A stretch of 40,193 bases of DNA, from NCBI GenBank assembly GCA_964450975.1, contig CAYVFO010000006.1, forward strand, positions 1 through 40,193, read 5' to 3'. Position 1 is the stretch's first letter; every line of letters starts with the position of its first letter. Positions 1,233 to 32,455 of the stretch are shown one piece after another. Both the position numbers and the translations under genes were made by a program. Under the pieces are notes generated by a model, which ran no database searches, was not told the origin of the DNA, and saw nothing but the letters and a program-made list of their open reading frames with translations. Source of the DNA: an uncultured Elusimicrobia bacterium. GTDB lineage: Bacteria > Elusimicrobiota > Elusimicrobia > UBA1565 > UBA9628.

Positions 1233-9323
<8,091 letters not shown>

Positions 9324-9419: not shown

Positions 9420-9481
9420 TAAAAGGAAAAGCATGGGGCCCACGCGCAGGCGGGACTATTGGCGAGTAACTTCGCTCGCCG

Positions 9482-9562
9482 CTAGCGGTGAGGAGGGATG
9501 CGGAACGAGCGGCCGGACAGGGCTACGGCGACGAGGCGGACGACGCGCGAGATGAGCTCCAT
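9482..9562 (-). CDS. Candidate 26-aa small peptide MELISRVVRLVAVALSGRSFRIPPHR
   Basis: ATG 8 nt after the MerR-gene stop, preceded by SD-like AGAGGA; no homology evidence. Confidence 0.3.
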   Translation of the reverse strand: MELISRVVRLVAVALSGRSFRIPPHR

Positions 9563-9570
9563 GATGTCCT

Positions 9571-9840: not shown

Positions 9841-9972
9841 CTCTCCCCCTCCGCGCGAATCTTGACGTACGGCGTCCAGGTCGCGGTTCTCTTCACGAAC
9901 ATCCAGGGCATCAGGTCCTTGGCGATCATCGGCGAGATCCTCCCGGCCCGTCAACCTCGTAGCAGCTGCGAA

Positions 9973-10001
9973 TATATAACAGCTTTCCTAATATATGTCA
10001 A
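9973..10001 (-). promoter_or_regulatory. sigma70-type promoter for the HspR-like gene
   Basis: TTGACA (10001-9996), 17-nt spacer, TATATA (9978-9973) in an AT-rich intergenic patch. Confidence 0.7.
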
Positions 10002-10065
10002 GAGCTTATCTAACAGAAAATATCATGGGGTTTTCCCTCTCCCGATTGTGTGTTAGAATTTCGGC

Positions 10066-11424: not shown

Positions 11425-12056
11425 CCGCCGCGCGACTGCAGGACGCCCTGGAACTCCGCGTCGGGCTCGGCGCGCAGGTCGTACCCCAGCTCGAGCTTCA
11501 GCGTCTCGGCGTGCAGCATCAGGCGTTTGGCGCCCCCGATCGGCCGCGGGGGCGGGCCGTAGCGCGGGTCGCCGAGCACGGGGTGGCCCTCGGAGCTCAG
11601 GTGCGCGCGGATTTGGTGCTTGCGGCCCGTCGCCGTCCAGACGCGCAGCAAAGTCGCGCCGCGCAGAGCGCGCTCGACGCGCCAGAACGTCTTCGCCGGC
11701 TTGCCGTCGGGCGCCGGCGCGACGCGTCCCGAGCTGAACTCGCGCAGAGGCTTGTCGATCTCGCCGCTGCCGGTCATCGAGCCGAGCACCGCGACGAGAT
11801 ACTCCTTCTTGGCGCGGCGCTGCTCGAACTCCATCGAGAGCAGGCGGTGCGTCTCCGCGTCCTTGGCGAAGACGAGGATGCCGCTCGCGTCGAGGTCGAG
11901 GCGGTGCACGACCCAGATTTTCTTGCGCAGGCGGCGCTCGATCTCCATGTTGACGGCGACCGCGATCTCGCCGCGGCCAGGGATGGTCGGACGGCCGCAC
12001 GGCTTGTGGACGGCGATGATCTTGTCGTCCTCGAAGACGACCGCGGCTTCGATCAT
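11421..12056 (-). CDS. RluA-family RNA pseudouridine synthase (211 aa)
   Basis: HKP.G, VHRLDLDASG (catalytic Asp), TGRKHQIRAH, GDPRYG, LHA; ATG 12056 overlaps the upstream stop (ATGA). Confidence 0.92.
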   Translation of the reverse strand: MIEAAVVFEDDKIIAVHKPCGRPTIPGRGEIAVAVNMEIERRLRKKIWVVHRLDLDASGILVFAKDAETHRLLSMEFEQRRAKKEYLVAVLGSMTGSGEIDKPLREFSSGRVAPAPDGKPAKTFWRVERALRGATLLRVWTATGRKHQIRAHLSSEGHPVLGDPRYGPPPRPIGGAKRLMLHAETLKLELGYDLRAEPDAEFQGVLQSRGG

Positions 12057-14847: not shown

Positions 14848-15213
14848 GTGACGAAGGCCTTAATCCTCGTGGTCGAAGACGAGCGCCCCGTGTACGAGAT
14901 CCTCGCGCGCGCGCTCGAGGCGAAAGGCCATAACGCCCGCCACGCCGAGAGCGCCGAAGCCGCCGAGGCCGCGCTCGCGAGCGGCTCCTTCGACCTCGTG
15001 CTGCTCGACCACGTGCTTCCGGGCGCGACCGGGATGCAGTCGCTCTCGCGCCTGCGCGCGCTCACCAAGGCGCCCATCCACATGATGAGCGGCTACACCG
15101 GCGACGACACCCGCGAGGACGCCCTGCTGCTGGGCGCGGCGGGCTTCATCCCGAAGCCGCTCGATCTCGCGCAGGTTTTCGCCGTCGTGGACGCCCTCCC
15201 GGAGAAGAAATGA
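14848..15213 (+). CDS. Single-domain response regulator (receiver)
   Basis: LVVEDE, DLVLLD, MSG, FIPKP receiver motifs. Confidence 0.9.
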   Translation: MTKALILVVEDERPVYEILARALEAKGHNARHAESAEAAEAALASGSFDLVLLDHVLPGATGMQSLSRLRALTKAPIHMMSGYTGDDTREDALLLGAAGFIPKPLDLAQVFAVVDALPEKK

Positions 15214-16496
15214 AGCTCCCCCCTCCCGCCGAGCTCAAGCGCGAGGCGCTCGCCGGCCTGACGACCTTCTTCACGATGGCCTACATCGTCGTCGTCAACC
15301 CCGCGATCCTCTGCGCGCCGGGCACGAACATGCCTTTCTCCGGCGTCATGACGGCGACCGTGCTGCTGTCGGCTCTCGGCACCCTGATGATGGGCGCCTA
15401 CGCGCGCCTGCCGTTCGCGGTCGCTCCCGGGATGGGCCTCAACGCGTTCTTCGCCTACTCGATCGTGCTCGGCCGCGGCGTGCCGTGGCCCGTCGCGCTC
15501 GGCGTCGTGTTCTGGGCCGGCGTCCTCTTCCTCGCGATCTCCGTCACGCCCGTGCGCGAGCGCATCGCCGAGGCGATCCCCGACGGCGTGCGCCTCGGCG
15601 CGGCGGCGGGCATCGGCCTGTTCCTCGCGTTCATCGGGCTGCGCAACGCCGGACTCGTCGTGGACGATCCTGCGACGCTCGTGCGCCTCGGCGTCATCGA
15701 CCGCAAGGCGCTGCTCGCGCTCGGCGGCGGCTGCGTGATCGTCGCCATGATGCGCCGCAGATCGGCGTTCGCGTTCCTCGGCGGCATCCTCGCGGTCACT
15801 GTGTGCGCCTGGGGGCTCGGGCTGATCGCGGCGCCCGCGAGCTTCGTCTCGTCCCCCGACTTCACGAGCGTGCTCTTCAAGCTCGACGCCGCCGGCGCGC
15901 TGTCCGCCGCGCTGCTGCCCGCGATCGTCTCGATCCTCTTCACCGACCTCTTCGACTCGATCTCGACGTTCGTCGGCGTCGCCAACGCGACCGGACTCGT
16001 CGACGAGAAGGGCCGGCCGAAGAACCTGCGCGAGGGGCTGATCGTGGACTCGTGGGCGACGCTCGGCGCGGGCCTGCTCGGCACCTCGTCCGGAACGGCC
16101 TACATCGAGAGCGCGGCCGGCATCGAGATGGGCGGCCGCACCGGCTGGACCGCGTTCTTCTGCGCGCTCGCGTTCGTGCCGTGCCTGTTCCTCTCCCCTC
16201 TCGCCGGCATGGTTCCGCCTTACGCGACCGCGCCGGTGCTCGTGATCGTCGGCGCGCTCATGTTCCGCTCGGTCGTCCGCATCCCGCTCGAGAGCGTCGA
16301 AGACGCCGTGCCCGCGTTCCTGACGATCGCGCTGATTCCCCTGACGTTCTCGATCACGCAGGGCATCCTCTGGGGCTTCGTCTCGCACTCGGCGCTGTAC
16401 GCGCTGTGCGGGCGCCGCAAGGACCTCTCCGGCGCGACCGTCGCGGTCTCCGCGCTGTGCGCGGGCCTGCTCCTGCTCGAGCACTCGCGCCTCTAG
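15210..16496 (+). CDS. NCS2 / AzgA-type purine (guanine/hypoxanthine/adenine) permease
   Basis: AGLTTFFTMAYI.VNPAIL, APGMGLNAFF, YIESAAGI..GGRTG. Confidence 0.92.
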   Translation: MKLPPPAELKREALAGLTTFFTMAYIVVVNPAILCAPGTNMPFSGVMTATVLLSALGTLMMGAYARLPFAVAPGMGLNAFFAYSIVLGRGVPWPVALGVVFWAGVLFLAISVTPVRERIAEAIPDGVRLGAAAGIGLFLAFIGLRNAGLVVDDPATLVRLGVIDRKALLALGGGCVIVAMMRRRSAFAFLGGILAVTVCAWGLGLIAAPASFVSSPDFTSVLFKLDAAGALSAALLPAIVSILFTDLFDSISTFVGVANATGLVDEKGRPKNLREGLIVDSWATLGAGLLGTSSGTAYIESAAGIEMGGRTGWTAFFCALAFVPCLFLSPLAGMVPPYATAPVLVIVGALMFRSVVRIPLESVEDAVPAFLTIALIPLTFSITQGILWGFVSHSALYALCGRRKDLSGATVAVSALCAGLLLLEHSRL

Positions 16497-16500
16497 CGCG

Positions 16501-17190
16501 CTACTTCCAGTTCGAGCAGCGCCGGTACACGGCGTCGTACGGGTCCGGGCGGTCGAGGCGCGCCTGGCCCTCGGCCTCCTCCTTCTCGAAGCGCGCGTAG
16601 ATGGGGTCGACGACGCGCGACAGCGCCCGCTTGAGCTCCTCCGCGACGGACGCGTAGTCCGTCGCGATCATCGGCGACGAGCGCGTGGGCAGGCCCTCGG
16701 CGCGCGACAGCGCGTCCTCGAGGTCGCGCGCGAGCTGCGCCGCGTGGACGCGAGCGTAGCGGCCGTGGCCGCGCTCGTGCGCGAGCACCGCGTCGTGCTC
16801 GCACGTGCCCGGCGGGTACTCGCGGGGCACGTGGATGACGGTCGAGGCGACGCGCACGTCGAGGATGACGTCGTCGAACCACGCCGAGACCGCCGTGTCT
16901 CCGATCGACGTCTTGAAGCTCGTGTGCGTCGCGAGCTCGTGCTTGATGATCGTGATCCCCTGGGTCTTGAGCCCGCGCCGCGCCGCGCCGGGCAGGCCCG
17001 CGATCTCCTTGAGCGCGAGATCGCGGCGGATCTCGAGCGGGGCCGCCGACGCGGAGACGCGGAAGCGGTAGAAGCGTCCCGCGGTCCCGCGCGGCGCGCG
17101 GCGCGCGGCCTCCACCGGCTTATCCTCGACGATCGCCGGCCCGCACGACGCGGCCGCGGCCAGCGCCGCGAGGAGGAGCGCGCGCCTCAC
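16501..17190 (-). CDS. Putative lipoprotein with an HExxH zinc motif (DUF922-like putative protease)
   Basis: GTG 17190 overlaps the upstream stop; MRRALLLAALAAAASC lipobox-like; VLAHERGH. Confidence 0.7.
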   Translation of the reverse strand: MRRALLLAALAAAASCGPAIVEDKPVEAARRAPRGTAGRFYRFRVSASAAPLEIRRDLALKEIAGLPGAARRGLKTQGITIIKHELATHTSFKTSIGDTAVSAWFDDVILDVRVASTVIHVPREYPPGTCEHDAVLAHERGHGRYARVHAAQLARDLEDALSRAEGLPTRSSPMIATDYASVAEELKRALSRVVDPIYARFEKEEAEGQARLDRPDPYDAVYRRCSNWK

Positions 17191-18577: not shown

Positions 18578-19372
18578 ATGGAGGCCAAGCACTTCGCGCT
18601 CGCCGCGGCTTGTCTCGCCGCGGGAGCGGCCGCCGGCTACGCCCTCGGGCGCCGCCGCCGCCGCCGCGTGGAGGCGACGCTCGCGGACGAGGACCAGCTC
18701 GCCTGGCTTCAGCGCCTCTCGACGATCGGCCAGATGATGTCGAGCGTCGTGCACGAGGTGCGCACCCCCCTCGCGACCGTGGGGCTCACGCTCGAGCTCG
18801 CGCAGCGCACCGTCGAGAAGGGCGGCGACCCGCGCCCGCATCTCGCCACCGCCGGAAAGGAGGCCGACCGCGCGGTCGAGATCCTCTCCGACATCCTCGA
18901 CTTCGCCAAGCCGACTCCTCTCGACCTCAAGCCCATCGCGCTCGAGAGCCTGATCAAGTCCGCGCTCGACCCGATCTGGATCCGCTTCGACGAGAGATCG
19001 GTCGACGTCTGGGTCGAGGTCCCCGCCGACATCCAGGTGCTCGCGAGCCAGCGCCACTTCCATCAGGTCGTGACGATCCTCCTCATGAACGCGCTCGACG
19101 CGCTGCCGTTCGGCGGCCGCCTCGAGATCGCCGCGAAGCGCAAGAAGGGCCTCGTGATCGTCGAAGTGCGCGACAACGGCGTCGGCCTCGAGCCCGCCGC
19201 GCTCAAGCGCCTGTTCCAGCCGTTCGCGACGGGCAAGGGCGAGCAGGGCGGCACGGGCCTCGGCCTCAACGTCGCCCGGTGGATCATGCACAAGCACGGC
19301 GGCGACGTCGCGATCACCTCCGGCGGCATCGGCAAGGGCGTGACCGTCACGCTGACGCTCAAGCCGGCCTAG
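18578..19372 (+). CDS. Membrane-anchored histidine kinase with no evident sensor domain (264 aa)
   Basis: One N-terminal hydrophobic segment + RRRRR; H-box VVHEVRTPL, N-box NALDA, DNGVG, FQPF, GTGLGL. Confidence 0.9.
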   Translation: MEAKHFALAAACLAAGAAAGYALGRRRRRRVEATLADEDQLAWLQRLSTIGQMMSSVVHEVRTPLATVGLTLELAQRTVEKGGDPRPHLATAGKEADRAVEILSDILDFAKPTPLDLKPIALESLIKSALDPIWIRFDERSVDVWVEVPADIQVLASQRHFHQVVTILLMNALDALPFGGRLEIAAKRKKGLVIVEVRDNGVGLEPAALKRLFQPFATGKGEQGGTGLGLNVARWIMHKHGGDVAITSGGIGKGVTVTLTLKPA

Positions 19373-19373
19373 C

Positions 19374-19916
19374 CTACCAGTCGCGCTTGTCGCAGGGGTC
19401 GGGCAGGTCCGCGCCCACGTTCTGGTAGGTCGGCGCGCTCGAGATCTCCACGATGTAGGCGAGCGTCGCATCGTCCGCGCTCATCGCCTTGAGCGCGTCG
19501 TACTGGACCTTGAGGCACTTCTTCTCCGCCTCGGCGCCCGTCCAGACGAGCGCGTCGGGCTCCGCGCCGCCGAGACGCGCCTTCTCCTCGAAGTAGAGCC
19601 TGGAGTGGTGGGCGTCATGCGCGATCGTGCCCGCGTACCAGAGCGCGCCCGCGCTCCACGTCGGCTTGCCGACCTCGTACGCCGGCTTCTCGCCGTAGAC
19701 GTTCATGCCGCTGCACTTGTGCTCCCGGATCTCGGCGACGTATTTGAGCACCGCGGCGTACTGCGCCGTCGGCCGGAGCTTGATCAGCGCCTCGCGCGTG
19801 GCGGCGACGAACTCGGGCGAGCCCACGGCCGGCACGAGCGGCGGCCGCGCGCGAAGCACGCCGTGCCAGCCGAGCGCCAGGACGAGGAACGCGGGCAGCG
19901 CGCGGAGAAATGTCAC
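19374..19916 (-). CDS. Exported/membrane-anchored hypothetical protein with HDAHH motif (paralog of 20515-21045)
   Basis: GTG 19916 overlaps the upstream stop; WYAGTIAHDAHH...WTGAEAEKKC. Confidence 0.75.
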   Translation of the reverse strand: MTFLRALPAFLVLALGWHGVLRARPPLVPAVGSPEFVAATREALIKLRPTAQYAAVLKYVAEIREHKCSGMNVYGEKPAYEVGKPTWSAGALWYAGTIAHDAHHSRLYFEEKARLGGAEPDALVWTGAEAEKKCLKVQYDALKAMSADDATLAYIVEISSAPTYQNVGADLPDPCDKRDW

Positions 19917-21793: not shown

Positions 21794-22098
21794 CCCTTCG
21801 CGCCCCAGCCCGCGCACTCGCGCACCGGCAAGCGCGGATACTTCGCGTAGGACGCCTCGGCTTCCGCGCGCCCGCACAGGAAGATCGCGCTCCCCGTCTT
21901 GGTCTTGAGCGTCTTGGCGTGCGCGCAGTCGAGACACTTGCCCACCATCGACGCGATCTCGGCCTTGAGGCACGAGGGACACAGGCAGCCCTCGTCGGTC
22001 ACCGGCATGACGGGCGGCAGCTCCGCGCACCAGCAATGTCCCTTGCCTTCGACGTTGCCGCAGCCGAACTCCGCCTTGCACCGGACGCACGTTTCCAT
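21790..22098 (-). CDS. Cysteine-rich CWC-family protein with a second Cys-rich module (102 aa)
   Basis: C..C...F.C, CWC, CLC..CL, then C..C...C...YPRLPV..C.G; ATG overlaps the upstream stop. Confidence 0.8.
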   Translation of the reverse strand: METCVRCKAEFGCGNVEGKGHCWCAELPPVMPVTDEGCLCPSCLKAEIASMVGKCLDCAHAKTLKTKTGSAIFLCGRAEAEASYAKYPRLPVRECAGWGAKG

Positions 22099-25000
22099 CA
22101 GCGGCGCTTCTCGTAGCGCGCCAGCGGGCGCGCGCGGTCTCCGCGGAAGCCGGGCGTCTGCTCGCGATCGTGCGCTCCCGCTTCGCGCGAGACGCGCGCG
22201 CCGAGGAAGTCGGCGAGCTCGCCGGCGGTGAGCGTTCCGTCCTTGTCCGCGTCGGCCTCGCCGTCGAGACCGCGCAGCGCGTACCACGTGAAGAGGCCGT
22301 GGCGCTTCGCGGGGAACGCCGAGCTCACCTGCGAGCCCGACGCCGCCGAGAACAACGAGACCTTGCCCGGAGGAACGACCGGCTCGACCTTCAGCGACAA
22401 AGGGCGGGCGTCGGCGATCAGCGGGCGGCTCTCGCGGTCGGCGCCCGAGAAGCACGCGTCGAGCCAGACCGTGACCGACTTCGCCTTCGAGCCGTCGAGA
22501 GACTTGAGCATGTCGTCGATCGGGAAGCCGGTCTCGACGGCGTAGTTCGGATCGCCATCCTGCGGGACGAGGTACGCGCCTTTGCCGTCGAGCGACGGCG
22601 CTCCGTGCCCCGCGTAGAACACGAAGACCTCGGACTGAGGGCCCACGCGCCGCGCGAGCCAGCCGCTCGGCGAGAACGCCTTGCGCAGCTCGGCGAGCGT
22701 CACGCCCTCGTCGAGGTAGAACATGTGGTTCGCGTCGTCGGGAACGCCGAGCACGCCTGCCGCGAACGCGCGGAAGGCGGCCGCGTCGCGGCGAGCGTGC
22801 GAGACGCGCGGCGCCTTAGGATAGTCCTCGACGCCGAGAATCACGGCGTAGGCCTCCGGACGCGCCGCCCCCCGGGCGGCCGGCGTCTCGATCGCCTCGG
22901 AGGAGCCGGCTTTCGGGAGGTCCTTGCCCTTGACGACGAGCTCGCGCGCGGAGCCGAGCGGCCTCGACAGCGGCACCTCGACGGGCGCGTCCCAGGAGTC
23001 GACGCCGTCGCCGAGCGCCGCGCGCAGCCGCAGCGTCCCCGCCGCGGACGTGTTCGAGAAGACGGTGAAGCGCGCCGTCGCGGAGGCGCCCGCGGCGAGC
23101 GCGCCGAGCGTCCGCCGCGCCTCGCCCTGCACGAACGCGTCCGCGTTCGCGCCGGCGAGAGTAATCGCCGCGGCGCCCGCCGCTCCCTCGCCGTCGTTGC
23201 GCACGACGACCGCGATCTCCGCGAGCTCGCCGGGCGAAACCACGCCGTCGCCGCCCGAATCGGATACTTTGATCGACGCGACCGACAGCTTCGCCCCCCG
23301 CCGCGCGCGCGTCTCGAAGACCATCTTGATGCCGCCCGAGGCGAAGCCGTTGGCGTCCTCGGCGGAAACGGTCAGAGATCGCGAGCCGTCGGCCGCGCCG
23401 GCGAGAGCTTTGACCGGGATCGTCACGGTCTTCGACGCTCCCGGGGCGATCTCGCCCGCGAAGTGGCGCGCGGCATAGCTCAAGCCGTCCGCCGCCGCCG
23501 GCGCCACGGCGACCGAGGCGCCGTAAGACGCGCCGGCGCCGGAGTTGGAGATCACCACCGAGATCTTCGCTGTCTCTCCCGCGCCGAGGCGCGCGTCGCC
23601 GTCGGCGTCCGCGAACTCCGCCTTCACGTCGAGCTTCGCCGGCGCGGCGGGCGCGGTGCGGGACCGCTTCACCGTTCCGGCCCCCGACGACCAAGTGAAG
23701 AGCTGCCCGAGTTCCTTGTCCGACACCGACAGGCGCAGGTCCTCGCGGACGGGCTTGCCGTCCTCGAGGCGGTGCCGGTAGCTCGCCTCGGCGCTCATGC
23801 GGCGGGACTTCGCCGCCTGGGCGTCCTTGCGCGCGATCGCGAGCTTCACCGCCCGCGTGGAGCCGTCGATGTCGACGACCGCGTCGAACTCCTCGGCGTC
23901 GGCGTCGTAGCTGCCGACCGTGATCGCGACGGGCTCGTTGATCTCCTCGTCGAGCGCCGCCTGCAGCGCCTCGCGCACTTTGCCGGCCTCGTCGCGGTCC
24001 TTCGCGTCGTAGACCGCGCCGATGCGCGCGGCTTCGGCCGCCGCTTCCCCGCGCTCGAGCGCGTCCTGCTCGTCGGCCGCCTTCATCCGCTGCGCGTACT
24101 CGGCGGCGGACTCGAACTCGCCCTTCGGCGTGCGGCGGGCCTTGGCCTTGCCGGCGTAAATCTCCGCGCTGCTCTGCAGCTCGGTCCTGCGGCGGTTCGC
24201 GAGCCGCTCCTCGATCTCCTTCTTGCGCCCGGAGAGCGCGGCGATCGCCGCGCGCTGCAGCTTCCCGCGGCGCAGGCGCCACGCGCGTCCCCCGTAGCCC
24301 GCGAGCCAACGGCCGTCGGCCGTGAAGACCGGATCGAAAAAATAATCAGGGAAATGGAGGACGATGATCGCGTCGTACCGGAGATCGGTGAGATACCAGG
24401 ACCGCGAGTCGGTTCCGCTGGTCAGGAAGTACCGTTCATCCGGGCTGAAGAGCGCGAGGTAAGTGCTGAACTCGGGGAGACCGGCGACCCTGCGCCCGCT
24501 CGGGATCTCGTATACGGCGGAGAGGTACTTCGATCTCTCGTAGGATTTCAACGCGACGAGCTTCGACGAAGGCGAGAACAGCTGCTCATAGCTGGAGCGC
24601 ACGCCGAGGTCGGCGACGGTCGTTCCGGCCGTCAGATCTTTGATCGCCGCGCCGCCGCCCGCGTCGACGAGCATATAGCGATCGTCCGGCGTCGTTTGAC
24701 CGCCGTCGAACAGCGACTGGGGAACGGGCGTCAACTCGGGCATCGAGTAGGATTTCTTCCCGGCGGCGAGCCATTTCCCGCCGCCCGAGAATTTGACGCG
24801 GCAATACGTTCGGTCGCAGGCGCCGACCGTCTTCGACTTGCCGGTCTGAAGGTCGACGAGGACGATGTCGAGCGAGTTGTCGCCGTAAGCGAACCAGCGG
24901 CCGTCCGGAGTGTCGGACCACTCGGACGAGTTGCGGAGACGCCCCCTGTGGATCATGCGGCCGTCGGAGCCGTAGAGCTCGAAACGGCCGTCGCTCAAAT

Positions 25001-25658
25001 CGACGCGGCGATAATTCGGCGCGGGCCGGTAATTCCGGTCCAGCCCGGGCTCGACCGCCTGCGGAGGCGCCGTGCATACCGCGCCGAAGTAGCCGTCGCA
25101 GACCACTCCGAATTCGAGATCGTAGGTGGCCGGGTAGCCGCCCTTCTCCAGCGACTGGAAGAAAATCATGCGGGCGTCGGTCTCGAAGGGATATTTCCAC
25201 TTTCCGAGCGTCCGCTTCCGGTTTCCTTCGAACTCGAAGGCGACCACGTAGTCCCCCTCGACGGCGACGACGCGCTTGCACGAGCGGTCGCCCTTCCACG
25301 CCGCCGTCTTCGGCGACGGCGTGAAGCGCACGCGGCCGGCTTCGTCGAGCACCTCGAGCTTGTTGTCGACGACCCGGATTCTCGGGCAGGACTCCGCCTT
25401 GGCGGGCTCGATCATGACGGCCGTACCGCGCTCCAAGTCGACGATCCATCGGCCCCGGGTGCCGTAGTCGTTCTCCGAATAGGTCTCGATGCGGATCTTG
25501 CGGTTGCGCGTGCCGTCGAACACGACGCGCGCGCCGTCGAGCGGCCGCGTCTCGCTGACCGCCCCTCGGAAATCGTAGTCCCACTGGGGCTCGACGATGG
25601 ACTGCGCCGGCGCGGCGGCGGCGAGAAGCGAGACGAGGGCGAGTGTTCGGAGGGCCAT
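22098..25658 (-). CDS. Secreted caspase-family (peptidase C14) protein with beta-propeller, coiled-coil and Ig-like domains
   Basis: Signal peptide; repeated FSPD/TPDGRW blades; two Ig/CARDB-like units (D.DGD...GE...I.V.V.N.G.G); catalytic FYAGHG and LDACFSG. Confidence 0.88.
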   Translation of the reverse strand: MALRTLALVSLLAAAAPAQSIVEPQWDYDFRGAVSETRPLDGARVVFDGTRNRKIRIETYSENDYGTRGRWIVDLERGTAVMIEPAKAESCPRIRVVDNKLEVLDEAGRVRFTPSPKTAAWKGDRSCKRVVAVEGDYVVAFEFEGNRKRTLGKWKYPFETDARMIFFQSLEKGGYPATYDLEFGVVCDGYFGAVCTAPPQAVEPGLDRNYRPAPNYRRVDLSDGRFELYGSDGRMIHRGRLRNSSEWSDTPDGRWFAYGDNSLDIVLVDLQTGKSKTVGACDRTYCRVKFSGGGKWLAAGKKSYSMPELTPVPQSLFDGGQTTPDDRYMLVDAGGGAAIKDLTAGTTVADLGVRSSYEQLFSPSSKLVALKSYERSKYLSAVYEIPSGRRVAGLPEFSTYLALFSPDERYFLTSGTDSRSWYLTDLRYDAIIVLHFPDYFFDPVFTADGRWLAGYGGRAWRLRRGKLQRAAIAALSGRKKEIEERLANRRRTELQSSAEIYAGKAKARRTPKGEFESAAEYAQRMKAADEQDALERGEAAAEAARIGAVYDAKDRDEAGKVREALQAALDEEINEPVAITVGSYDADAEEFDAVVDIDGSTRAVKLAIARKDAQAAKSRRMSAEASYRHRLEDGKPVREDLRLSVSDKELGQLFTWSSGAGTVKRSRTAPAAPAKLDVKAEFADADGDARLGAGETAKISVVISNSGAGASYGASVAVAPAAADGLSYAARHFAGEIAPGASKTVTIPVKALAGAADGSRSLTVSAEDANGFASGGIKMVFETRARRGAKLSVASIKVSDSGGDGVVSPGELAEIAVVVRNDGEGAAGAAAITLAGANADAFVQGEARRTLGALAAGASATARFTVFSNTSAAGTLRLRAALGDGVDSWDAPVEVPLSRPLGSARELVVKGKDLPKAGSSEAIETPAARGAARPEAYAVILGVEDYPKAPRVSHARRDAAAFRAFAAGVLGVPDDANHMFYLDEGVTLAELRKAFSPSGWLARRVGPQSEVFVFYAGHGAPSLDGKGAYLVPQDGDPNYAVETGFPIDDMLKSLDGSKAKSVTVWLDACFSGADRESRPLIADARPLSLKVEPVVPPGKVSLFSAASGSQVSSAFPAKRHGLFTWYALRGLDGEADADKDGTLTAGELADFLGARVSREAGAHDREQTPGFRGDRARPLARYEKRR

Positions 25659-25690: not shown

Positions 25691-25699
25691 TGCTATACT
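25691..25699 (+). promoter_or_regulatory. Extended -10 promoter of the tRNA
   Basis: TGcTATACT directly upstream of the tRNA 5' end. Confidence 0.6.
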
Positions 25700-25703: not shown

Positions 25704-25780
25704 TGCGGGGTAGAGCAGCCCGGTAGCTCGCAAGGCTCATAACCTTGAGGTCGCTGGTTCAAATCCAGCCCCCGCAACCA
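25704..25780 (+). tRNA. tRNA-Met (CAT), initiator (fMet) type
   Basis: 77-nt cloverleaf, CTCATAA anticodon loop, GGTTCAAATCC T-arm, encoded CCA, A11-U24 pair, overall close to known bacterial initiator tRNAs. Confidence 0.95.
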
Positions 25781-25789
25781 ATTTAGTTT

Positions 25790-25853
25790 CGAACCCGTAA
25801 CGAGAAATGTCGGGACCGTCACCCTCAGGCTTCGGCCTGGGGGTTTTGTGTTT
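25790..25853 (+). ncRNA. Candidate structured small RNA, copy A; ends in an intrinsic terminator hairpin
   Basis: First 27 nt are 25/27 identical to 32391-32417; hairpin ACCCTCAGGC-TTCG-GCCTGGGGGT followed by a T-rich tail. Confidence 0.55.
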
Positions 25854-25864
25854 AAAGGAGAGGA

Positions 25865-26467
25865 TTGCCGGATAAATGGAAGCTGTTCGTCGCCGCGACG
25901 ATCGTGATCGCGGCGACCCCCGGACCGAACATGCTGCTCGTGATGACGAGCAGCGTGCGGGCCGGCTTCGTCCGCTCGTTCTGGACGATGGCGGGCTGCC
26001 TGACCGGCGTGATCGCGATGATGGCCGTCTCGGCCGCGGGGCTCGGCGCATTGCTCGAGGCGGCGCCGCGCGCGTTCGGGGCGCTCAAGCTCGCCGGAGC
26101 GGCCTACCTCGCCTATCTCGGCGTGAAGATGATCCTCGCGAAGGACGAGGGCGGCGCCGCCGCGCGCATCGACTCCGCGCATCTCTACCGCCAGGGGCTG
26201 CTCGTCTCCTTGTCCAACCCGAAGGCGATCCTCTTCGCCGCGGCGTTCCTCCCCCAGTTCCTCGACGCCGACAAGCCGCGCGCCGCGCAGTTCGGCGTCC
26301 TCGTGGCCCTGTTCGCCGTCATCGAGGTCGCGTGCTACCTCGCCTACGCGATCGGCGGCCGGCAGGCGGCGAGGCTCCTCGAGCGGCCGGGCGTGCGCCT
26401 CGCCTTCGACCGCGGCGCGGGGGCCCTGTTCGTGCTGTTCGCGGCACTTCTCGTCGTCGGAGCTTAG
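25865..26467 (+). CDS. LysE/RhtB-family amino-acid exporter
   Basis: TPGPNM, LKLAGAAYLAYLG, SNPKAILF...FLPQF; AGGAG SD before the TTG. Confidence 0.9.
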   Translation: MPDKWKLFVAATIVIAATPGPNMLLVMTSSVRAGFVRSFWTMAGCLTGVIAMMAVSAAGLGALLEAAPRAFGALKLAGAAYLAYLGVKMILAKDEGGAAARIDSAHLYRQGLLVSLSNPKAILFAAAFLPQFLDADKPRAAQFGVLVALFAVIEVACYLAYAIGGRQAARLLERPGVRLAFDRGAGALFVLFAALLVVGA

Positions 26468-26497
26468 CGCTCCGGACGGAGTTTCCTGAGTGTTTGG

Positions 26498-26526
26498 TTG
26501 AGAAAACCCTGATACGGGCTTATCCT
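26498..26526 (+). promoter_or_regulatory. sigma70-type promoter, leaderless
   Basis: TTGAGA-17 nt-TATCCT, 6 nt before ATG 26533. Confidence 0.7.
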
Positions 26527-26532
26527 GAGGTC

Positions 26533-27069
26533 ATGGATAACACCAGCTGGCTCGAGACCCCCGAGCGGCCTGACGAGGAGACCGGGACGGCGGCGATGCC
26601 GACCCCGGCGCTGAGCGCGGGCGCGCGGCGCTCCCTCAAAGGCCTGGCCGCGTCGACCGCCGCGCTCCTGGCGGCCGTCACCCTTTCCATCCACATGTCG
26701 TCCGACGCCTACGCCGCCAAGCCCAAGCTCAAGTACCGCGTCGCCCGGGTGGACATGGCGGGGCTCGACGCGATCGATATCGCGAAGGCGTACAAGATGG
26801 GCGGCGACGAGCTCACCGTGCTCGAGCGCCTCGGCGGCCGCGAGCGCGCGGCCGGCGGCGCCAAGCTGTGGACGGCCGAGCGCCTCGCGAAGGACTTCTA
26901 CCTCGTCGTCTTCCGTCCCGAGAACGGCGCCCCGTGCGCCTTCGAGGTGGACCTCGCCTCCGAGCGCGTGCTCGCGACGCCCGAGGCCGTCGAGTCGCTG
27001 ACGGCTCTCCGCGTGCGCGACGTGTCCGGAGCGGGGGCGTCCGGCGTCCTCGTCGCGCGCGCGGACTGA
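26533..27069 (+). CDS. Hypothetical single-pass membrane protein (178 aa)
   Basis: MDNTSWLETP... with one hydrophobic segment; own promoter; typical codon usage. Confidence 0.75.
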   Translation: MDNTSWLETPERPDEETGTAAMPTPALSAGARRSLKGLAASTAALLAAVTLSIHMSSDAYAAKPKLKYRVARVDMAGLDAIDIAKAYKMGGDELTVLERLGGRERAAGGAKLWTAERLAKDFYLVVFRPENGAPCAFEVDLASERVLATPEAVESLTALRVRDVSGAGASGVLVARAD

Positions 27070-27076
27070 GCGCGCG

Positions 27077-27298
27077 TCAGTGGTGGACCAGGTCGTCGTG
27101 CTTGCGGACCGACGGCGTCGTCCTGTGCGAGACTTTCCGCCCCGCGGCGATGCCGGCGATCATCGTGATCGCGAACAGCGCCAGGAACGCGACGAACAGG
27201 CCCTTGGCGATGCCGGCCGCCGTGCCCGCCACCCCGGTCATTCCGAACGCTCCGGCGATCAGCGCGACGACGAGAAACGTGAATGCCCATCGAAGCAT
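27077..27298 (-). CDS. DUF1328 (UPF0391) small membrane protein
   Basis: MLRWAFTFLVVALIAGAFGMTGVAGTAAGIAKGLF; GGAGG SD. Confidence 0.88.
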   Translation of the reverse strand: MLRWAFTFLVVALIAGAFGMTGVAGTAAGIAKGLFVAFLALFAITMIAGIAAGRKVSHRTTPSVRKHDDLVHH

Positions 27299-27389
27299 AA
27301 GCTCCTCCCGGGGGGAGCGTCGACGATAGTGTAGCTCCGCGCCTCGGGCGCCGCCGTCTCGGGGAAGCAACGATTTTGTTTAATACGTC

Positions 27390-28226
27390 ATGCGCGCGCG
27401 GCTGCTTCCCCTCCTCCTCGCCGCGATCGTCCTGAGCGGCTGCTCGGCCCGGTCGCGCCGCTTCGCCTCCTACCAGTTCGCCGGCAAAGCGCCCGCGATG
27501 ACGTGCAAAGAGGACGGCGCCGCGCGCTGGTGCCTGCACGAGACCAAGGACGCGGGCCCCGATCTCGTCTACTTCCTCCACTACGCGACCGGCGACGAGC
27601 GCAGCTGGAACCGCCTCGGCCTCTCGCGCGCCTTCTACAGCGAGTTCAAGAAGCTCGGCCGCAAGGCGCCGCGCGTCGTCACGGTCTCCTACGGCTCGCA
27701 CTGGCTGATGACCAACAAGCCGGGCAGGCAGACCGTCCTGCTCAAGGAGTTCGACGAGCTTCGCCGCCGCATCGAGGACGGCCTCGGCCCCGTCGAACGC
27801 CGCTTCGCGTGGGGCATGTCCCAGGGCGGCTACAACGCCGCAGAGCTCGTGCTCTCGGAGCCGGGCCTTTGGAGCGGCGCGGCGCTTTCGTGCCCCGCGC
27901 TGTACGCCGTGTCGCCGTACGCGAAGCTCGATAAGGAGGTCTGGGCGCGCGACGTCGAGGGCCGGCAGCTCTTCACGCACCGCATGGCCGACGACGCCAC
28001 GTGGACGGCGGAGAACCCGCTCGCGCTCGCCGCGGCCGCCGAGACGCTCCCGCCGTTCTGGATCGAGGCGAACCCCGACGACGAGTTCGGCTTCGCGGAC
28101 GGCGCGCGCGCCCTCGCGAAGGCGCTGCGCGACGCGGGCGGTGCCGCGACGCTCGTCGAGACCCCCGGCGGGCACTGCGCGATCGACGCCCGGGCCGCCG
28201 CGCGCTTCCTCGCGACCATCCAGTGA
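27390..28226 (+). CDS. Alpha/beta-hydrolase (esterase-like) lipoprotein
   Basis: LSGC lipobox; nucleophile GMSQGG; D and GGH triad candidates. Confidence 0.82.
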   Translation: MRARLLPLLLAAIVLSGCSARSRRFASYQFAGKAPAMTCKEDGAARWCLHETKDAGPDLVYFLHYATGDERSWNRLGLSRAFYSEFKKLGRKAPRVVTVSYGSHWLMTNKPGRQTVLLKEFDELRRRIEDGLGPVERRFAWGMSQGGYNAAELVLSEPGLWSGAALSCPALYAVSPYAKLDKEVWARDVEGRQLFTHRMADDATWTAENPLALAAAAETLPPFWIEANPDDEFGFADGARALAKALRDAGGAATLVETPGGHCAIDARAAARFLATIQ

Positions 28227-29437
28227 TCAAGGCCGAGCGGGTCGCGGCCGTCCGCTTCATCTTCGTCACGATCCTGCTCGACGCCGCGGGGCTCGGCATC
28301 CTCATTCCCGTCCTGCCCGACGTGCTCCGGCGCTTCTCGGACGATCCCGCGGTCGTCTCGGCCAACTTCGGCTGGTTCATCAGCGCCTACGCGCTCATGC
28401 AGTTCGCGGCTTCGCCCGTGCTCGGCTCGCTCTCCGACCGCTACGGCCGACGCTCGATCCTGCTCTCCTCGCTCCTCGGCGCCGCGCTCGACTACCTGTT
28501 CATGGCGTTCGCCCCGACCCTGCCCCTGCTGTTCGTCGGCCGCGCGATCTCGGGCCTGACGGGCGCTTCCATGACCGTCGCGAGCTCGTACATGGCCGAC
28601 ATCAGCGACGACAAGACGCGCTCGGCGAACTTCGGCATGATCGGCGCGGGCTGGGGCATCGGCTTCATCCTCGGCCCGCTCGCGGGCGGACTGCTCGCCT
28701 CGCTCGGGCCGAAGGCGCCGTTCATCGCGGCGGCGCTCCTCAACCTCGTCAACTTCCTCTACGGCTGGCTCTTGCTTCCCGAATCGCTGCCGCCCGAGCG
28801 CCGCCGCAAGACGAGCGCGCGCGAGCTCAACCCGATCGCGTCGATCTTCCGCATCGTCAAGCCGTCCGCGTTCGCGCCCTACATCTGGATCTACTTCCTC
28901 GTGTTCCTCGCCGGCCAGATCCACCCGGTGAACTGGACGCTCTACACGGAGACGAAGTTCGGCTGGTCGTCCTGGCAGGTCGGGCTGTCGCTGTCCTTCG
29001 TCGGCGTCATGATCGCCGTCGCGCAGGGCGGCCTGACGCGCGTGATCGTGCCGAAGCTCGGCGAGCAGCGCTCGCTGACGCTCGGGTTGACGATCTTCGC
29101 GGTCTCCTTCGCGCTGTTCTCCGTCGCGTCGAAGGGCTGGATGATGTACGCGATCGTCGTGCTCTTCTCCTTGTCGGGCATCACGATGCCGTCGCTGCAG
29201 TCGATCCTCGCCAAGCACGTCCCCCCCGACCGCCAGGGCGAGATGCAGGGCAGCCTCGTCTCGCTCGGCAGCCTCTCCTCGATCTTGGCGCCTCTGATCT
29301 TCACGTCCTTGTTCGTGCGCTTCACCTCCGGCGGCGGCGCGTACTTTCCGGGCGCGGCGTACCTCGGCGCCTCCGGGATCTGCTGCTTTACGCTCGCGTT
29401 CCGCCTCTGGCTCGCCTCGCGCGAGCGCCGCGCGTGA
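28223..29437 (+). CDS. TetA-like (DHA1/TCR) MFS efflux transporter
   Basis: LDAAGLGILIPVLP, YALMQF..SPVLGSLSDRYGRR, GFILGP..GG, QGEMQG; substrate unknown. Confidence 0.9.
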   Translation: MIKAERVAAVRFIFVTILLDAAGLGILIPVLPDVLRRFSDDPAVVSANFGWFISAYALMQFAASPVLGSLSDRYGRRSILLSSLLGAALDYLFMAFAPTLPLLFVGRAISGLTGASMTVASSYMADISDDKTRSANFGMIGAGWGIGFILGPLAGGLLASLGPKAPFIAAALLNLVNFLYGWLLLPESLPPERRRKTSARELNPIASIFRIVKPSAFAPYIWIYFLVFLAGQIHPVNWTLYTETKFGWSSWQVGLSLSFVGVMIAVAQGGLTRVIVPKLGEQRSLTLGLTIFAVSFALFSVASKGWMMYAIVVLFSLSGITMPSLQSILAKHVPPDRQGEMQGSLVSLGSLSSILAPLIFTSLFVRFTSGGGAYFPGAAYLGASGICCFTLAFRLWLASRERRA

Positions 29438-30378
29438 AGCGCGCGCTCTGGTCCGCGGCCGTCCTCGCCTCGCTTCCCGTCCTGGTACTGCTGAGCGCCG
29501 CGGTGCGGGAGCGCTCCGCGGACCGTCCGCCGGAAGGCCGCCTCGTTTCCGCGGGCGACGTCTCTCTCTACGTCCAGGAAGCGGGCCCCGTGGACGGCCC
29601 GGTCGTCTTGTTCACGCACGGGATGGGCGCGTGGAGCGGCCTGTGGCGGCCCCTGCTCGACCCGCTCGCAGCCGCGGGCATCCGCTGCGTCGCCGTGGAC
29701 CTGCCGCCGTTCGGCTTCTCCGAGCGCCCGGCGAGCGGCGACTACTCGCGCGCCGCGCAGGCGCGCCGCCTCTGGGCGCTCGCCGACTCGCTCGGCGCGC
29801 GGAAGGTCTCCTTCGTCGGGCACTCGTTCGGCAGCGGCGCCGTCGCGGAAGCCGCGCTCGCCGAGCCCGGGCGCGTCGAAAAGCTGATCCTCATCGCGCC
29901 CGCGCTCGGCCTCGACGCGCCGGGGCCGCCGTCGGCGCTCGCGCGCGCGGCGCTCGGCGTCCGCCCGCTCCGCCAGGCGCTCGTCGCGGCCACGCTCGCC
30001 AATCCGCTGCTCGTGCGGCGGGGCCTGACCGGCTTCATGGCGCGCGACGAGGCCGCCACGCCGGAGCGCGTCGAGATCCTCCGCCGCCCGCAGCGCGCGA
30101 AGGGCTATGTGCGCGGTCTCGGCGAGTGGCTGCCGGGCTTCGTTCTCGGCGGCGAGGCCTCGCCCAGTTTCGACCGCGCGGCCTACGCGCGGCTTGCCAT
30201 GCCCGTCCGGCTCATCTGGGGCGACAAGGACGAGACCACGCCGCTGGCGCAGGGCGAGGCGCTCGCGAAGTCGATCCCGGGCGCGGAGCTCGTCGTCCTG
30301 CCCGGAATCGGCCACATGCCGCAGCTCGAGGACCCCGCCCGCGTGCAGGCGCTGCTCGTCGAGCGCCTGAAGCGCTGA
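29434..30378 (+). CDS. Alpha/beta-hydrolase with N-terminal anchor
   Basis: HGMG, DLPPFGFS, GHSFG, IWGDKD, GHMPQLE. Confidence 0.9.
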   Translation: MKRALWSAAVLASLPVLVLLSAAVRERSADRPPEGRLVSAGDVSLYVQEAGPVDGPVVLFTHGMGAWSGLWRPLLDPLAAAGIRCVAVDLPPFGFSERPASGDYSRAAQARRLWALADSLGARKVSFVGHSFGSGAVAEAALAEPGRVEKLILIAPALGLDAPGPPSALARAALGVRPLRQALVAATLANPLLVRRGLTGFMARDEAATPERVEILRRPQRAKGYVRGLGEWLPGFVLGGEASPSFDRAAYARLAMPVRLIWGDKDETTPLAQGEALAKSIPGAELVVLPGIGHMPQLEDPARVQALLVERLKR

Positions 30379-30606
30379 TCACTCGCCGCCTTTCGTGTCC
30401 TCGACGTCGGGGTCCGACACGGCCTGGTCGATGGACGTGCGCGGATCGCCCTTGAACCTGTCGGGCTGGACCGCGTTGTAGGCCGCCGCGACCGCGGCGT
30501 CGAGCGGCGCGCTCGCCGGGCGAGTCGGACCGCCGCTCGAGACGCCGTCCTCGATCTTCTTCGTCTTGCGCGTGCTCTTGATGCGCGATGTCTTGGCGGG
30601 CTTCAT
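30379..30606 (-). CDS. Small hypothetical protein (75 aa)
   Basis: GGAGG SD, upstream TAAACT, fills the gap between neighbours. Confidence 0.65.
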   Translation of the reverse strand: MKPAKTSRIKSTRKTKKIEDGVSSGGPTRPASAPLDAAVAAAYNAVQPDRFKGDPRTSIDQAVSDPDVEDTKGGE

Positions 30607-30675
30607 GAGACCTCCGTTTCAATCAGTTTACCCGGCCGTCGCGTCTCGGCGAGGTCACTTTGTTATGATGGCGCC

Positions 30676-32034
30676 ATGAGCCAGGACAAGGCGACGATCC
30701 GGCGCGTCATCCTCGCGTCGAGCCTCGGGACGCTGTTCGAGTGGTACGACTTCTACCTCTACGGCAGCCTGGCCGTCTTCTTCGGCGCGAAGTTCTTCCC
30801 GCCCGGCGACGAGACCGCGCAGCTGCTCGCGAGCCTCGCGACGTTCGGCGCCGGCTTCGGCGTGCGCCCGCTCGGCGCGCTCGTCTTCGGCCACGTCGGC
30901 GACCTCGTCGGGCGCAAGTACACCTTCCTCGTCACCATGGCGACGATGGGCCTCTCGACCGCGCTCGTCGGCTTTCTGCCGACGTACGAGACCGCGGGAC
31001 TCTGGGCGACGTCGGCGCTCGTCGGCCTGCGCCTGCTCCAGGGCCTGGCGCTCGGCGGCGAGTACGGCGGCGCGGCGACCTACGTCGCCGAGCACGTGCC
31101 CGACGAGCGCCGCGGCTACTACACCGCCTACATCCAGACGACGGCGACTCTCGGCTTCTTCCTCTCCATGCTCGTCATCGGCGGCACGCGCCTGGCGATG
31201 GGCGAGGCCGCGTTCAAGACCGGCGAAGGGGCCGCGTTCGCGGGCTGGCGCGTGCCGTTCGTCTTCAGCTTCCTGCTGCTCGGCGTGAGCCTCTACATCC
31301 GCGTGAAGATGAAGGAGAGCCCGCTGTTCACGAAGCTCAAGGCGGCCGGAAAGGTCTCGGTGAACCCGCTCAAGGAGAGCTTCCTCAATCCGGTCAACCG
31401 CCGCTACGTGCTCATCGCGCTGTTCGGCGCCGCCGCCGGCCAGGGCGTCGTCTGGTACACCGGGCAGTTCTACGCGCTCACGTTCCTGCAGACCGCGCTC
31501 AAGCTCGACTGGAAGACGGCGTATCTCGTCGTCTCCGCGGCTTTGCTCATCGGCACGCCGCTGTTCCTGTATTTCGGCCACCTGTCGGACACGCTCGGCC
31601 GCAAGAGGATCATGCTCGCGGGCTGCGCGCTCGCGGCGCTGACGTACGTGCCGATCTACATGGGGATGAAGGCGTACTCGGACCCGGTCAACGTCCCCGT
31701 CCTGATCGCGCTCGTCTCGCTGCAGATGGTCTACGTCGCGATGGTCTACGGCCCGATCGCGGCGTTCCTCGTCGAGCTGTTCCCGACGAACATCCGCTAC
31801 ACGTCGATGTCCCTCCCCTACCACCTCGGCAACGGCTGGTTCGGCGGCTTCCTGCCGCTGATCGCGACGGCGCTCACGGCGTCGGAGTGGGCCAAGACGA
31901 CGCTCGGCGACAACGCGATCTACGCGGGCCTCATCTATCCCATCGCCGTCTGCGTCCTCACGATCTGCGTCGGCGGACTGCTGATCAAAGAGACGAAAAA
32001 TCATAAGATCGATACCGCCGAAAGAGCCGCGTAA
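30676..32034 (+). CDS. MFS transporter, metabolite:H+ symporter (MHS) family
   Basis: GTLFEWYDFYLY, RPLGALVFG..GDLVGRK, LQGLALGGEYGGA, ELFPTNIRY. Confidence 0.93.
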   Translation: MSQDKATIRRVILASSLGTLFEWYDFYLYGSLAVFFGAKFFPPGDETAQLLASLATFGAGFGVRPLGALVFGHVGDLVGRKYTFLVTMATMGLSTALVGFLPTYETAGLWATSALVGLRLLQGLALGGEYGGAATYVAEHVPDERRGYYTAYIQTTATLGFFLSMLVIGGTRLAMGEAAFKTGEGAAFAGWRVPFVFSFLLLGVSLYIRVKMKESPLFTKLKAAGKVSVNPLKESFLNPVNRRYVLIALFGAAAGQGVVWYTGQFYALTFLQTALKLDWKTAYLVVSAALLIGTPLFLYFGHLSDTLGRKRIMLAGCALAALTYVPIYMGMKAYSDPVNVPVLIALVSLQMVYVAMVYGPIAAFLVELFPTNIRYTSMSLPYHLGNGWFGGFLPLIATALTASEWAKTTLGDNAIYAGLIYPIAVCVLTICVGGLLIKETKNHKIDTAERAA

Positions 32035-32046
32035 AGGAGACCCCCA

Positions 32047-32322
32047 ATGAAAGCCAGCGCCCGCCACATCCTCGTCCCGACCAAGGACGCCTGCGAGAAC
32101 CTCAAGAAGCAGATCGAGGGAGGCTCCGACTTCGCCGCCCTCGCCAAGCAGCACTCGAAGTGCCCCTCCGGCGCCCGCGGCGGCGACTTGGGCGAGTTCG
32201 GCCCCGGACAGATGGTCCCCGAGTTCGACAAGGTCGTCTTCTCCGCGCCCGTCGGGAAGGTGCAGGGCCCGGTGCAGACCCAGTTCGGCTACCACCTCAT
32301 CGAGATCACCAAGCGCGGCTGA
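32047..32322 (+). CDS. ppiC: Parvulin peptidyl-prolyl isomerase
   Basis: [37 protein letters not shown]; 91 aa; AAGGAG SD. Confidence 0.93.
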
Positions 32323-32337
32323 TTTCCGTCACGCGTT

Positions 32338-32367
32338 CGTTGCGCGCGCTTCATGGCGCGCGCAACG
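32338..32367. repeat. Perfect 12-bp inverted repeat after ppiC
   Basis: CGTTGCGCGCGC-TTCATG-GCGCGCGCAACG; no U-tract, so terminator versus operator is unresolved. Confidence 0.7.
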
Positions 32368-32390
32368 CGGGACGGCTATGATGTCGGCAA

Positions 32391-32455
32391 CGAACCCGTA
32401 ACCAGAAATATCGGGACAAGAACCCTCGGGACGAAAGCCCGGGGGTTTCGCGTTT
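32391..32455 (+). ncRNA. Candidate structured small RNA, copy B
   Basis: Starts 8 nt after TATGAT (32377-32382); homologous to 25790-25853; hairpin with GAAA loop and T-rich tail. Confidence 0.55.

Follow-up and report, generated by a model that had tools for sequence, protein, structure and literature searches.

A tRNA-Met gene, a parvulin gene and a recurring two-hairpin element

The window analysed here is a stretch of 40,193 nucleotides (nt) from an uncultured Elusimicrobia bacterium (GenBank assembly GCA_964450975.1, contig CAYVFO010000006.1, positions 1 to 40,193). It carries a gene for transfer RNA-Met (tRNA-Met) and, further along, a parvulin (ppiC) gene, and after each of them lies a short element made of two hairpins and a U-rich tail. 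These two elements, referred to below as copy A and copy B, are very probably members of an uncatalogued family of real small RNA (sRNA) genes, a reading that rests on their sequence and on comparison with related genomes. The coordinates of all features are collected in Table 1.

In copy A, the motif CGAACC begins at position 25790, leaving 9 nt between the tRNA CCA and CGAACC. It opens a 27-nt block, CGAACCCGTAACGAGAAATGTCGGGAC (25790-25816), which is followed by a GC-rich hairpin with a UUCG loop and by the tail TTTTGTGTTT, ending at 25853. In copy B, CGAACC begins at position 32391, 8 nt after a TATGAT box, and the block at 32391-32417 is that of copy A with two changes, followed by a hairpin with a GAAA loop and by the tail TTTCGCGTTT. 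A preliminary description of this DNA had reported two look-alike elements, and both are indeed present: their 27-nt cores agree at 25 of 27 positions, and the pattern, found twice in the window, was seen in none of 100 dinucleotide-preserving shuffles. Folding reproduced the CCCG/CGGG 5' hairpin and the 3' hairpin in both copies, with the UUCG loop in A and the GAAA loop in B, and the sequences bear out the compensatory change that had been pointed out, an A-U pair of copy A standing where copy B has G-C. On two points the earlier account needed correction. The elements are located where it had put them, but the conserved unit begins about 8 nt upstream of the start it gave; and copies A and B are real, but the genome holds three copies rather than two, the third lying on another contig (C87).

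The tRNA in front of copy A we take to be of the initiator type, judging by its A11:U24 pair and its initiator-like D arm and T loop, and the two further CAT tRNAs of the genome are unlike it. It has a U1-A72 pair and an anticodon stem with only two G-C pairs. The −10-like box upstream ends 4 nt before base 1, which would leave little or no 5' leader.

RNA structure and strand

To describe the element across genomes, 110 distinct copies were aligned (alignment A1) and used to build a covariance model (R1). Six loci with four distinct sequences, whose tails departed from the trimming pattern, were left out of A1. The copies share one architecture, in which RN↓WUU (the arrow marking the predicted cut discussed below) stands before an invariant CGAA, followed by a 5-bp helix (P1) closing the loop R-AC-N-AGAAAU-R, a GGACC linker, a second helix (P2) and the U-rich tail UUYGYGUUU. 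The RNA is about 65-72 nt long.

In A1 the proposed helices are paired in 93.2% of cells, compared with 83.1% in shuffled alignments. Covariation scores 0.321, where shuffles give 0.127; not one shuffle out of 500 reaches the observed value, and registers slid along the alignment score at most 0.10. The middle pair of P1 (columns 15-31) is C-G in 58 copies, U-A in 50 and A-U in 2 of the 110, and the innermost pair (17-29) is A-U in 40, G-U in 6, U-G in 5, C-G in 4 and U-A in 2, with U-U or another combination in 53. At three pairs of P2, double changes number 30, 39 and 52. One copy of family f2 carries P1 as CUGUC/GACAG, with both sides changed at pairs that are invariant in A1. Since the 72 G-U and U-G cells of A1 would be A-C mismatches on the opposite strand, the plus strand is the RNA strand. 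An open reading frame (ORF) that starts at the ATG of the loop spans 22 amino acids (aa) in copy A and 9 aa in the C87 copy and is absent in copy B; the RNA is therefore non-coding.

One position in the middle of the loop varies freely (G 63, A 18, U 17, C 12; n = 110). The tail lies outside the 27-nt collecting pattern, and the trimming pattern of A1 did require it; it was therefore counted among 133 distinct copies taken without a tail filter, the loci left out of A1 included, and reads UYGYGUUU in 121, only YGYGU in 11 and neither in 1. In the window genome, a hairpin precedes the tail motif at the three copies only. A helix between the 5' CGAA and the UUYG of the tail would be paired in 98.9% of cells of A1, with zero double changes. 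Pairings of loop with tail and of leader with loop, drawn by eye, were disfavoured by the free mid-loop base and by two copies of family f5 in which the loop carries AGCAAU and the tail is unchanged.

Family size and distribution

In the window genome, a 3.03-Mb assembly of 81% completeness and 69% G+C, R1 finds three copies at E about 4e-14 or better, plus one chance-level match at E 0.33. Allowing up to three mismatches, the 27-nt pattern occurs in 29 of 41 genomes (40 relatives and the window's own), with one to three matches each, and in 23 of 24 genomes of the same genus, while the reversed pattern, used as a control, gave no match in those genomes. Viral contigs gave 0 matches to the pattern. 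A scan of one genome per prokaryotic species returned at least 126 stretches; among the 80 matches listed, the titles of 72 name Elusimicrobia or Elusimicrobiota (in three of these cases as Endomicrobium), those of five say only 'bacterium', and those of three give other phylum names.

R1 matches 82 of the 101 genomes examined from the same order (48 of 59 high-quality ones), at 1-5 copies each and in 26 of 33 genera. By family, matches were obtained in 62 of 77 genomes of f1, 5 of 6 of f2 and 14 of 17 of f3. An even sample across the phylum gave matches in 9 of 151 genomes, three of which are among the seven sister-family genomes, and no match among the 45 and 44 genomes that represent two large small-genome families in that sample. 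Conservation of the element spans one order of Elusimicrobiota together with a single neighbouring family. Copies are often clustered on one contig. In one sister-family genome (locus L183, G151:C4), three copies stand in tandem within 460 bp, at 548-615, 757-822 and 951-1010; in the second and third, P1 has decayed and the loop remnant, the terminator and the tail are intact.

When 131 distinct cores were sorted by the sequence upstream, 48 followed a tRNA 3' end, 56 a TGCTATAMT-type box and 27 were classed as 'other'. The preliminary description had proposed a functional RNA family with one copy derived from a tRNA trailer and one transcribed independently; comparison across genomes and the covarying structure support the first part, and the same split into two kinds of gene recurs from genome to genome. 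It had also listed other identities that the elements might have. A known Rfam family is not indicated, as there is no match at the gathering score or at E<=10. Copy number, at 3 here and 1-5 in relatives, is far from the hundreds of a repeat resembling repetitive extragenic palindromes (REP) or miniature inverted-repeat transposable elements (MITE). A plain terminator repeat does not account for the compensatory changes in the 5' helix or for the invariant loop, which make the element more than a terminator.

Transcription of the three kinds of gene

Copy A lies between the tRNA 3' end and the terminator of the unit, with no promoter in between, which is the position of a tRNA 3' trailer (3' external transcribed spacer, 3'ETS). 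It would therefore be co-transcribed with the tRNA. The presumed promoter of this unit, the box TGCTATACT, is not listed by a consensus promoter scan and is without a good −35 element. Its extended −10 type, TGnTAnnnT, is also found upstream of 61 stand-alone copies elsewhere that have no tRNA, in 26 cases with a distance of exactly 14 nt to CGAACC. The copy on C87 has a promoter, TTGACT-17-TATAAT, that agrees with the sigma-70 consensus at 11 of 12 positions, has TG before the −10 element and ends 7 nt before the conserved block. An own promoter and an intrinsic terminator here enclose a short non-coding unit, the layout of a trans-encoded sRNA gene.

Copy B falls into a third ortholog group, characterised by CAA at the 5' end in place of WUU, C as the free base of the loop and CGCG in the tail (UUUCGCGUUU). 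Upstream of these copy-B-type genes in relatives there is a palindrome, TGACGCG-NN-CGTCA, centred near −42, together with a −10-like box; in the window, a 10-nt insertion converts part of this upstream region into the terminator hairpin of the parvulin gene. The TATGAT box of copy B is not listed by the consensus promoter scan. An alignment of upstream regions places a TAnnnT-like box at the same position in the orthologous copies of seven other genomes. P2 of copy B is likewise unlisted in the terminator scan, the tail having too few U. The palindrome is probably the site of a transcription factor, and its half-site spacing, TGA-N8-TCA, is presumably unlike that of CRP or FNR sites. Because the copy-B-type genes form a separate ortholog group with a palindrome-bearing promoter of their own, copy B is probably switched on under particular conditions.

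Predicted processing and RNA-binding proteins

In 90 of the 110 copies, R-N-W-U-U fills the five columns in front of CGAA. The corresponding counts at the three adjacent offsets are 0, 0 and 7, and 8 of the 20 exceptions are copy-B-type genes. RN↓WUU is the core motif of ribonuclease (RNase) E as described in PMC5222698. Searches for RNase E/G were positive in 23 of 26 relatives; for the high-quality ones the count is 17 of 17. The N-terminal domain of RNase Y was above the cut-off in none of the 26, and the C-terminal domain of RNase J was not found in the window's own genome. From the fixed offset of the motif and the presence of RNase E/G in relatives we infer an RNase E-type cleavage at RN↓WUU that would remove the tRNA from one kind of transcript and a short leader from the other.

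Genes for Hfq, CsrA and ProQ were found in 0 of 31 genomes each, by searches that were positive in control genomes. The identity of a sponge for Hfq-bound sRNAs thus does not suit the element, no Hfq having been found in the 31 genomes.

Genomic neighbourhood

Neighbouring genes were counted for 49 copies with enough flanking sequence, using a crude ORF caller based on GC frame. The next gene after the sRNA is convergent in 18 cases, lies on the same strand in 25 (within 40 nt in 10 of these) and is absent from the flank in 6. As the next gene is convergent in 18 of 49, the element is not an obligate leader. The constant class of same-strand downstream gene that marks a riboswitch or cis-acting leader is not seen among these copies, whose same-strand neighbours are mutually unrelated. 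The genes next to the copies vary, among them a cold-shock gene, a parvulin gene and a 49-aa ORF, and in the window a LysE gene follows at +12. The conserved ORF of 49-51 aa (MKIHMYEFRSDKKKLKCSCGWERTLK...) is preceded by a GGAGA site and begins 9-15 nt downstream of the tail in six genomes (L017, L021, L025, L027, L029 and L178); it matches no Pfam family, and tblastn did not find it in the window genome.

Among 46 tRNA-side loci, ARAGORN found an intact tRNA-Met in 24 and the remaining 22 retain a 3' fragment only; 16 of these fragments break off at the anticodon stem, the other 6 closer to the 3' end. The sRNA-linked tRNA-Met is thus an integration hot spot in this lineage, as the 22 truncated tRNAs indicate. 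At one such locus (L197, G004:C10), an integrative element at 5404-12919 lies upstream of a tRNA-Met 3' fragment and sRNA, with the junction at about 14,560. It carries a tyrosine integrase, a TraG/TraD-like coupling protein, MerT/HMA metal genes, a MazF-like toxin gene and a cation efflux gene. In another genome (G028) there is a second copy 6.2 kb away, in which the sRNA and, at 88% identity over 64 nt, the tRNA promoter are present but the tRNA has been deleted; no integrase was found between the two copies. Because this duplicate retains promoter and sRNA and has lost the tRNA, selection holds the sRNA itself and not just a terminator for the tRNA.

The window genome also contains, outside the window, a separate MITE-like intergenic repeat of about 180 nt, whose long inverted arms consist of TTCGCCGTC-type units and flank a GC hairpin. 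The repeat ends in AAACACGAAG and CTTCGTGTTT, which share a 9-mer with the sRNA tail, possibly by chance, and it is otherwise quite unlike the sRNA family.

Table 1. Positions of the sRNA copies, their parts and surrounding features (window coordinates unless a contig is named)
Feature	Position	Strand	Basis or remark
Presumed promoter of the tRNA-sRNA unit, extended −10-like box TGCTATACT	25691..25699	+	4 nt before tRNA
tRNA-Met (CAT), initiator-type, encoded CCA	25704..25780	+	ARAGORN; Rfam tRNA 67.8 bits
sRNA copy A, tRNA-trailer copy, full model match	25782..25853	+	covariance model R1, 75.2 bits, E 3.3e-17
AGUUU of copy A, fits R-N↓W-U-U	25785..25789	+	predicted RNase E-type cut between 25786 and 25787
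Helix P1 of copy A, 25794-25798 / 25810-25814	25794..25814	+	fold and pair counts; loop 25799-25809 = AACGAGAAAUG
Terminator hairpin P2 of copy A, 25822-25843, UUCG loop; tail UUUUGUGUUU, 25844-25853	25822..25853	+	terminator scan, fold, covariation, tail counts
Parvulin (ppiC) gene	32047-32322		Pfam assignment
Region of the copy-B-type palindrome	32329-32355		palindrome 40-60 nt upstream in L037, L040, L041, L043, L046, L068, L131
GC hairpin after the parvulin gene, inside the copy B promoter region	32339..32366	+	read from sequence; context only
Copy B −10-like box TATGAT	32377..32382	+	read from sequence
sRNA copy B	32383..32455	+	covariance model R1, 64.3 bits, E 4.1e-14
Helix P1 of copy B, 32395-32399 / 32411-32415	32395..32415	+	fold; loop 32400-32410 = AACCAGAAAUA
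Terminator hairpin P2 of copy B, 32423-32445, GAAA loop, one bulged A; tail 32446-32455	32423..32455	+	fold
Third sRNA copy	G000:C87:5511-5584	−	covariance model R1
1186-aa protein with CARDB and caspase (Peptidase_C14) domains	22098-25658	−	divergent from tRNA
MITE-like repeat, contig C1	~19,260-19,540; ~45,480-45,930		
MITE-like repeat, contig C13	~16,400-16,650		
MITE-like repeat, contig C14	~14,850-15,100		
MITE-like repeat, contig C63	~8,900-9,150		
MITE-like repeat, contig C145	~5,450-5,900		

A proposed trans-acting regulatory RNA

The explanation that we favour, and to which as a whole we attach roughly even confidence, is that the family encodes an RNase E-trimmed, Hfq-independent regulatory sRNA that acts in trans, most likely pairing through its loop or 5' end. 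That the RNA acts in trans seems likely, and that it does so by base pairing is put forward tentatively. The ancestral gene would have stood behind the initiator-type tRNA-Met and been co-transcribed with it, and duplicates would have gained or retained strong sigma-70 promoters of their own. RNase E/G would cut both kinds of transcript at RN↓WUU, giving a 5'-P-WUUCGAACC... end, and transcription would stop at the covarying P2 with its tail UUYGYGUUU. The mature RNA would then act in trans without Hfq, ProQ or CsrA, exposing a single-stranded 5' end and, at the top of a 5-bp helix, an apical loop that is A-rich and invariant (AC-N-AGAAAU). The loop or the 5' end would most likely pair with U-rich sites in mRNAs, sites that are rare at 69% G+C.

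Several observations weigh against this proposal. RNase E/G was not found in the window genome, which is 81% complete. A duplex scan of 4187 candidate start regions of this genome with loop, 5'-end and tail probes gave no hit beyond the background tail, and the best perfect complement, of 11 nt (C32:5067), falls inside a ROK-kinase-like reading frame. Nearly all unpaired bases (5' CGAA, loop, GGACC and tail) are fixed and one mid-loop position is free; this is unusual for a pure antisense RNA, and a protein or tertiary contact fits it at least as well. In part, the 27-nt core is invariant in A1 by construction, since the copies were collected by that pattern. Promoters close to the consensus, together with the tRNA linkage, suggest that the RNA is made constitutively and in abundance, as is more typical of housekeeping RNAs. 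Finally, the ORF caller behind the count of 18 convergent neighbours in 49 is a crude one based on GC frame.

The complement of the loop, AUUUCUNGU, occurs 30 times in the window genome outside the three sRNA genes, with no common theme. Three sense-strand matches at start codons were considered as targets and set aside, being explained by Lys codons.

Alternative explanations

The fixed single-stranded positions also suit an RNA that binds a protein, as a decoy or sponge or as the RNA part of a small ribonucleoprotein. A candidate protein would recognise the P1 loop and its fixed flanks, and the RNA would titrate or guide it, possibly in translation initiation given the linkage to an initiator tRNA. 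We consider this unlikely overall. Nearly every single-stranded position is kept except the mid-loop N, a purine-purine juxtaposition closes the loop, and the tail is conserved far beyond the needs of termination (UYGYGUUU in 121 and YGYGU in 132 of 133 copies). The promoters appear strong and constitutive, the unit is co-located with a tRNA, and the antisense target scans of the window genome gave no outlier. Against these points stand the failure to find Hfq, ProQ or CsrA as partners in any of the 31 genomes and the variable neighbourhood, in which no gene is consistently adjacent. Each RNA, moreover, offers a single potential binding hairpin, unlike sponges with several sites.

A further hairpin with the sRNA loop motif, CUGCCCCCG-ACGAGAAAU-CGGGUGCAG, was noticed in an mRNA leader elsewhere in the window genome (L200, G000:C7, at about 170-200, minus strand), just before the ribosome site of a gene that is cut by the contig end. 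It was examined as a site related to P1 and taken to be a chance resemblance or stray fragment. Its gene has no homologue in 40 relatives, and so gives no sign of a regulon built on such hairpins.

A related possibility is a housekeeping RNA, abundant and made constitutively, whose gene would have been coupled to that of the initiator tRNA throughout an entire bacterial order, and in which fixed loop, flanks and tail would form one surface for a candidate protein, for example a factor of translation initiation or RNA decay. This seems to us improbable.

The element might instead work in cis, as the terminator and processing signal of the tRNA-Met unit and, where it precedes a gene, as a leader or attenuator that sets read-through. 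P2 is the sole terminator of the tRNA unit, and a same-strand ORF follows within 40 nt after 10 of the 49 copies, among them the 49-aa ORF directly after the tail with its GGAGA in six genomes, a parvulin gene in others and LysE at +12 in the window. Yet for 18 of the 49 copies the next gene is convergent, for 6 the flank contains none, and the genes downstream are mutually unrelated. There is neither room for nor sign of an alternative anti-terminator pairing, the helices tested being without covariation. Stand-alone copies with a strong promoter and no tRNA have been retained, and termination would not require an invariant P1 loop. Taken together, these points make a purely cis-acting module quite improbable.

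That the element acts at the DNA level, as part of the attachment site of integrative elements targeting tRNA-Met or as a short dispersed repeat, is scarcely credible: the 22 of 46 tRNA-side copies that stand behind a tRNA 3' fragment resemble island junctions, a tyrosine integrase and a TraG/TraD-like coupling protein lie upstream of one of these in G004, and copies frequently cluster on one contig, but the junctions duplicate the tRNA fragment and not the sRNA, which is native flank, copies with their own promoter have no tRNA remnant, G-U pairs and helix covariation with free hairpin sequence are signatures of RNA, the pattern is not found in viral contigs, genomes hold only 1-5 copies and no integrase separates the two G028 copies, so that the attachment-site reading, considered for the G028 copies, the tRNA-fragment junctions and the G004 island, was rejected as the main explanation.

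Significance

Elusimicrobiota are almost entirely uncultivated, and the present family would be the first lineage-wide sRNA family described for the phylum. It would offer a handle on RNA-based regulation in bacteria where the three global sRNA-binding proteins Hfq, ProQ and CsrA were not found. The covariance model can be used for annotation and is a candidate Rfam entry. A single data set would also capture the passage from a tRNA trailer to a free-standing sRNA gene, by duplication of the promoter followed by loss of the tRNA. Should the housekeeping reading hold instead, the family would make up a new class of ribonucleoprotein or decoy RNA linked to a tRNA, in bacteria without Hfq, ProQ and CsrA.

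Comparison with known systems

Against Rfam 15 (4227 models), the window gives the tRNA alone at the gathering score. At E<=10 both copies draw chance-level matches only, at no more than 17.8 bits and far below gathering, and eight related loci gave no match. Full-text literature searches for small or non-coding RNA in Elusimicrobiota turned up no relevant paper.

The element resembles REP and MITE sequences in being short, in containing a palindrome and in recurring between genes. Those repeats number tens to hundreds of copies and are species-specific. Here there are 3 copies and not dozens, with the promoter, strand and covariation of an RNA gene, and the family extends across bacterial families and is not confined to one species.

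The Qrr RNAs of Vibrio are multi-copy sibling sRNAs, each transcribed from a promoter of its own to its own terminator, and they require Hfq and sigma-54. They resemble the present family in that several near-identical short RNAs occur per genome, with an invariant 5' part and variable terminator stems. The Elusimicrobia RNAs differ in having sigma-70-like promoters, one copy on a tRNA, no chaperone gene found and no Rfam match.

In E. coli, the 3'ETS of leuZ reportedly acts as a small-RNA sponge. The parallel with copy A is one of layout, a small RNA directly behind a tRNA in the same unit, released by an RNase E-type cut (here predicted) and ending at the operon terminator. Unlike 3'ETS-leuZ, to which it has no sequence or model similarity, the Elusimicrobia family also exists as stand-alone genes with their own promoters, at 1-5 copies per genome, has a conserved hairpin loop and occurs in bacteria where Hfq was not found.

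Cyanobacterial Yfr1 and actinobacterial 6C RNA are lineage-wide and Hfq-independent and expose a conserved motif between or on hairpins. The Elusimicrobia motif is A-rich (AC-N-AGAAAU) and not C-rich or CU-rich, the sequence is different, and there is no Rfam match at E<=10. What the family shares with Yfr1 and 6C RNA is its short length, its two hairpins, conservation across an order or phylum, a fixed exposed motif and apparently constitutive promoters.

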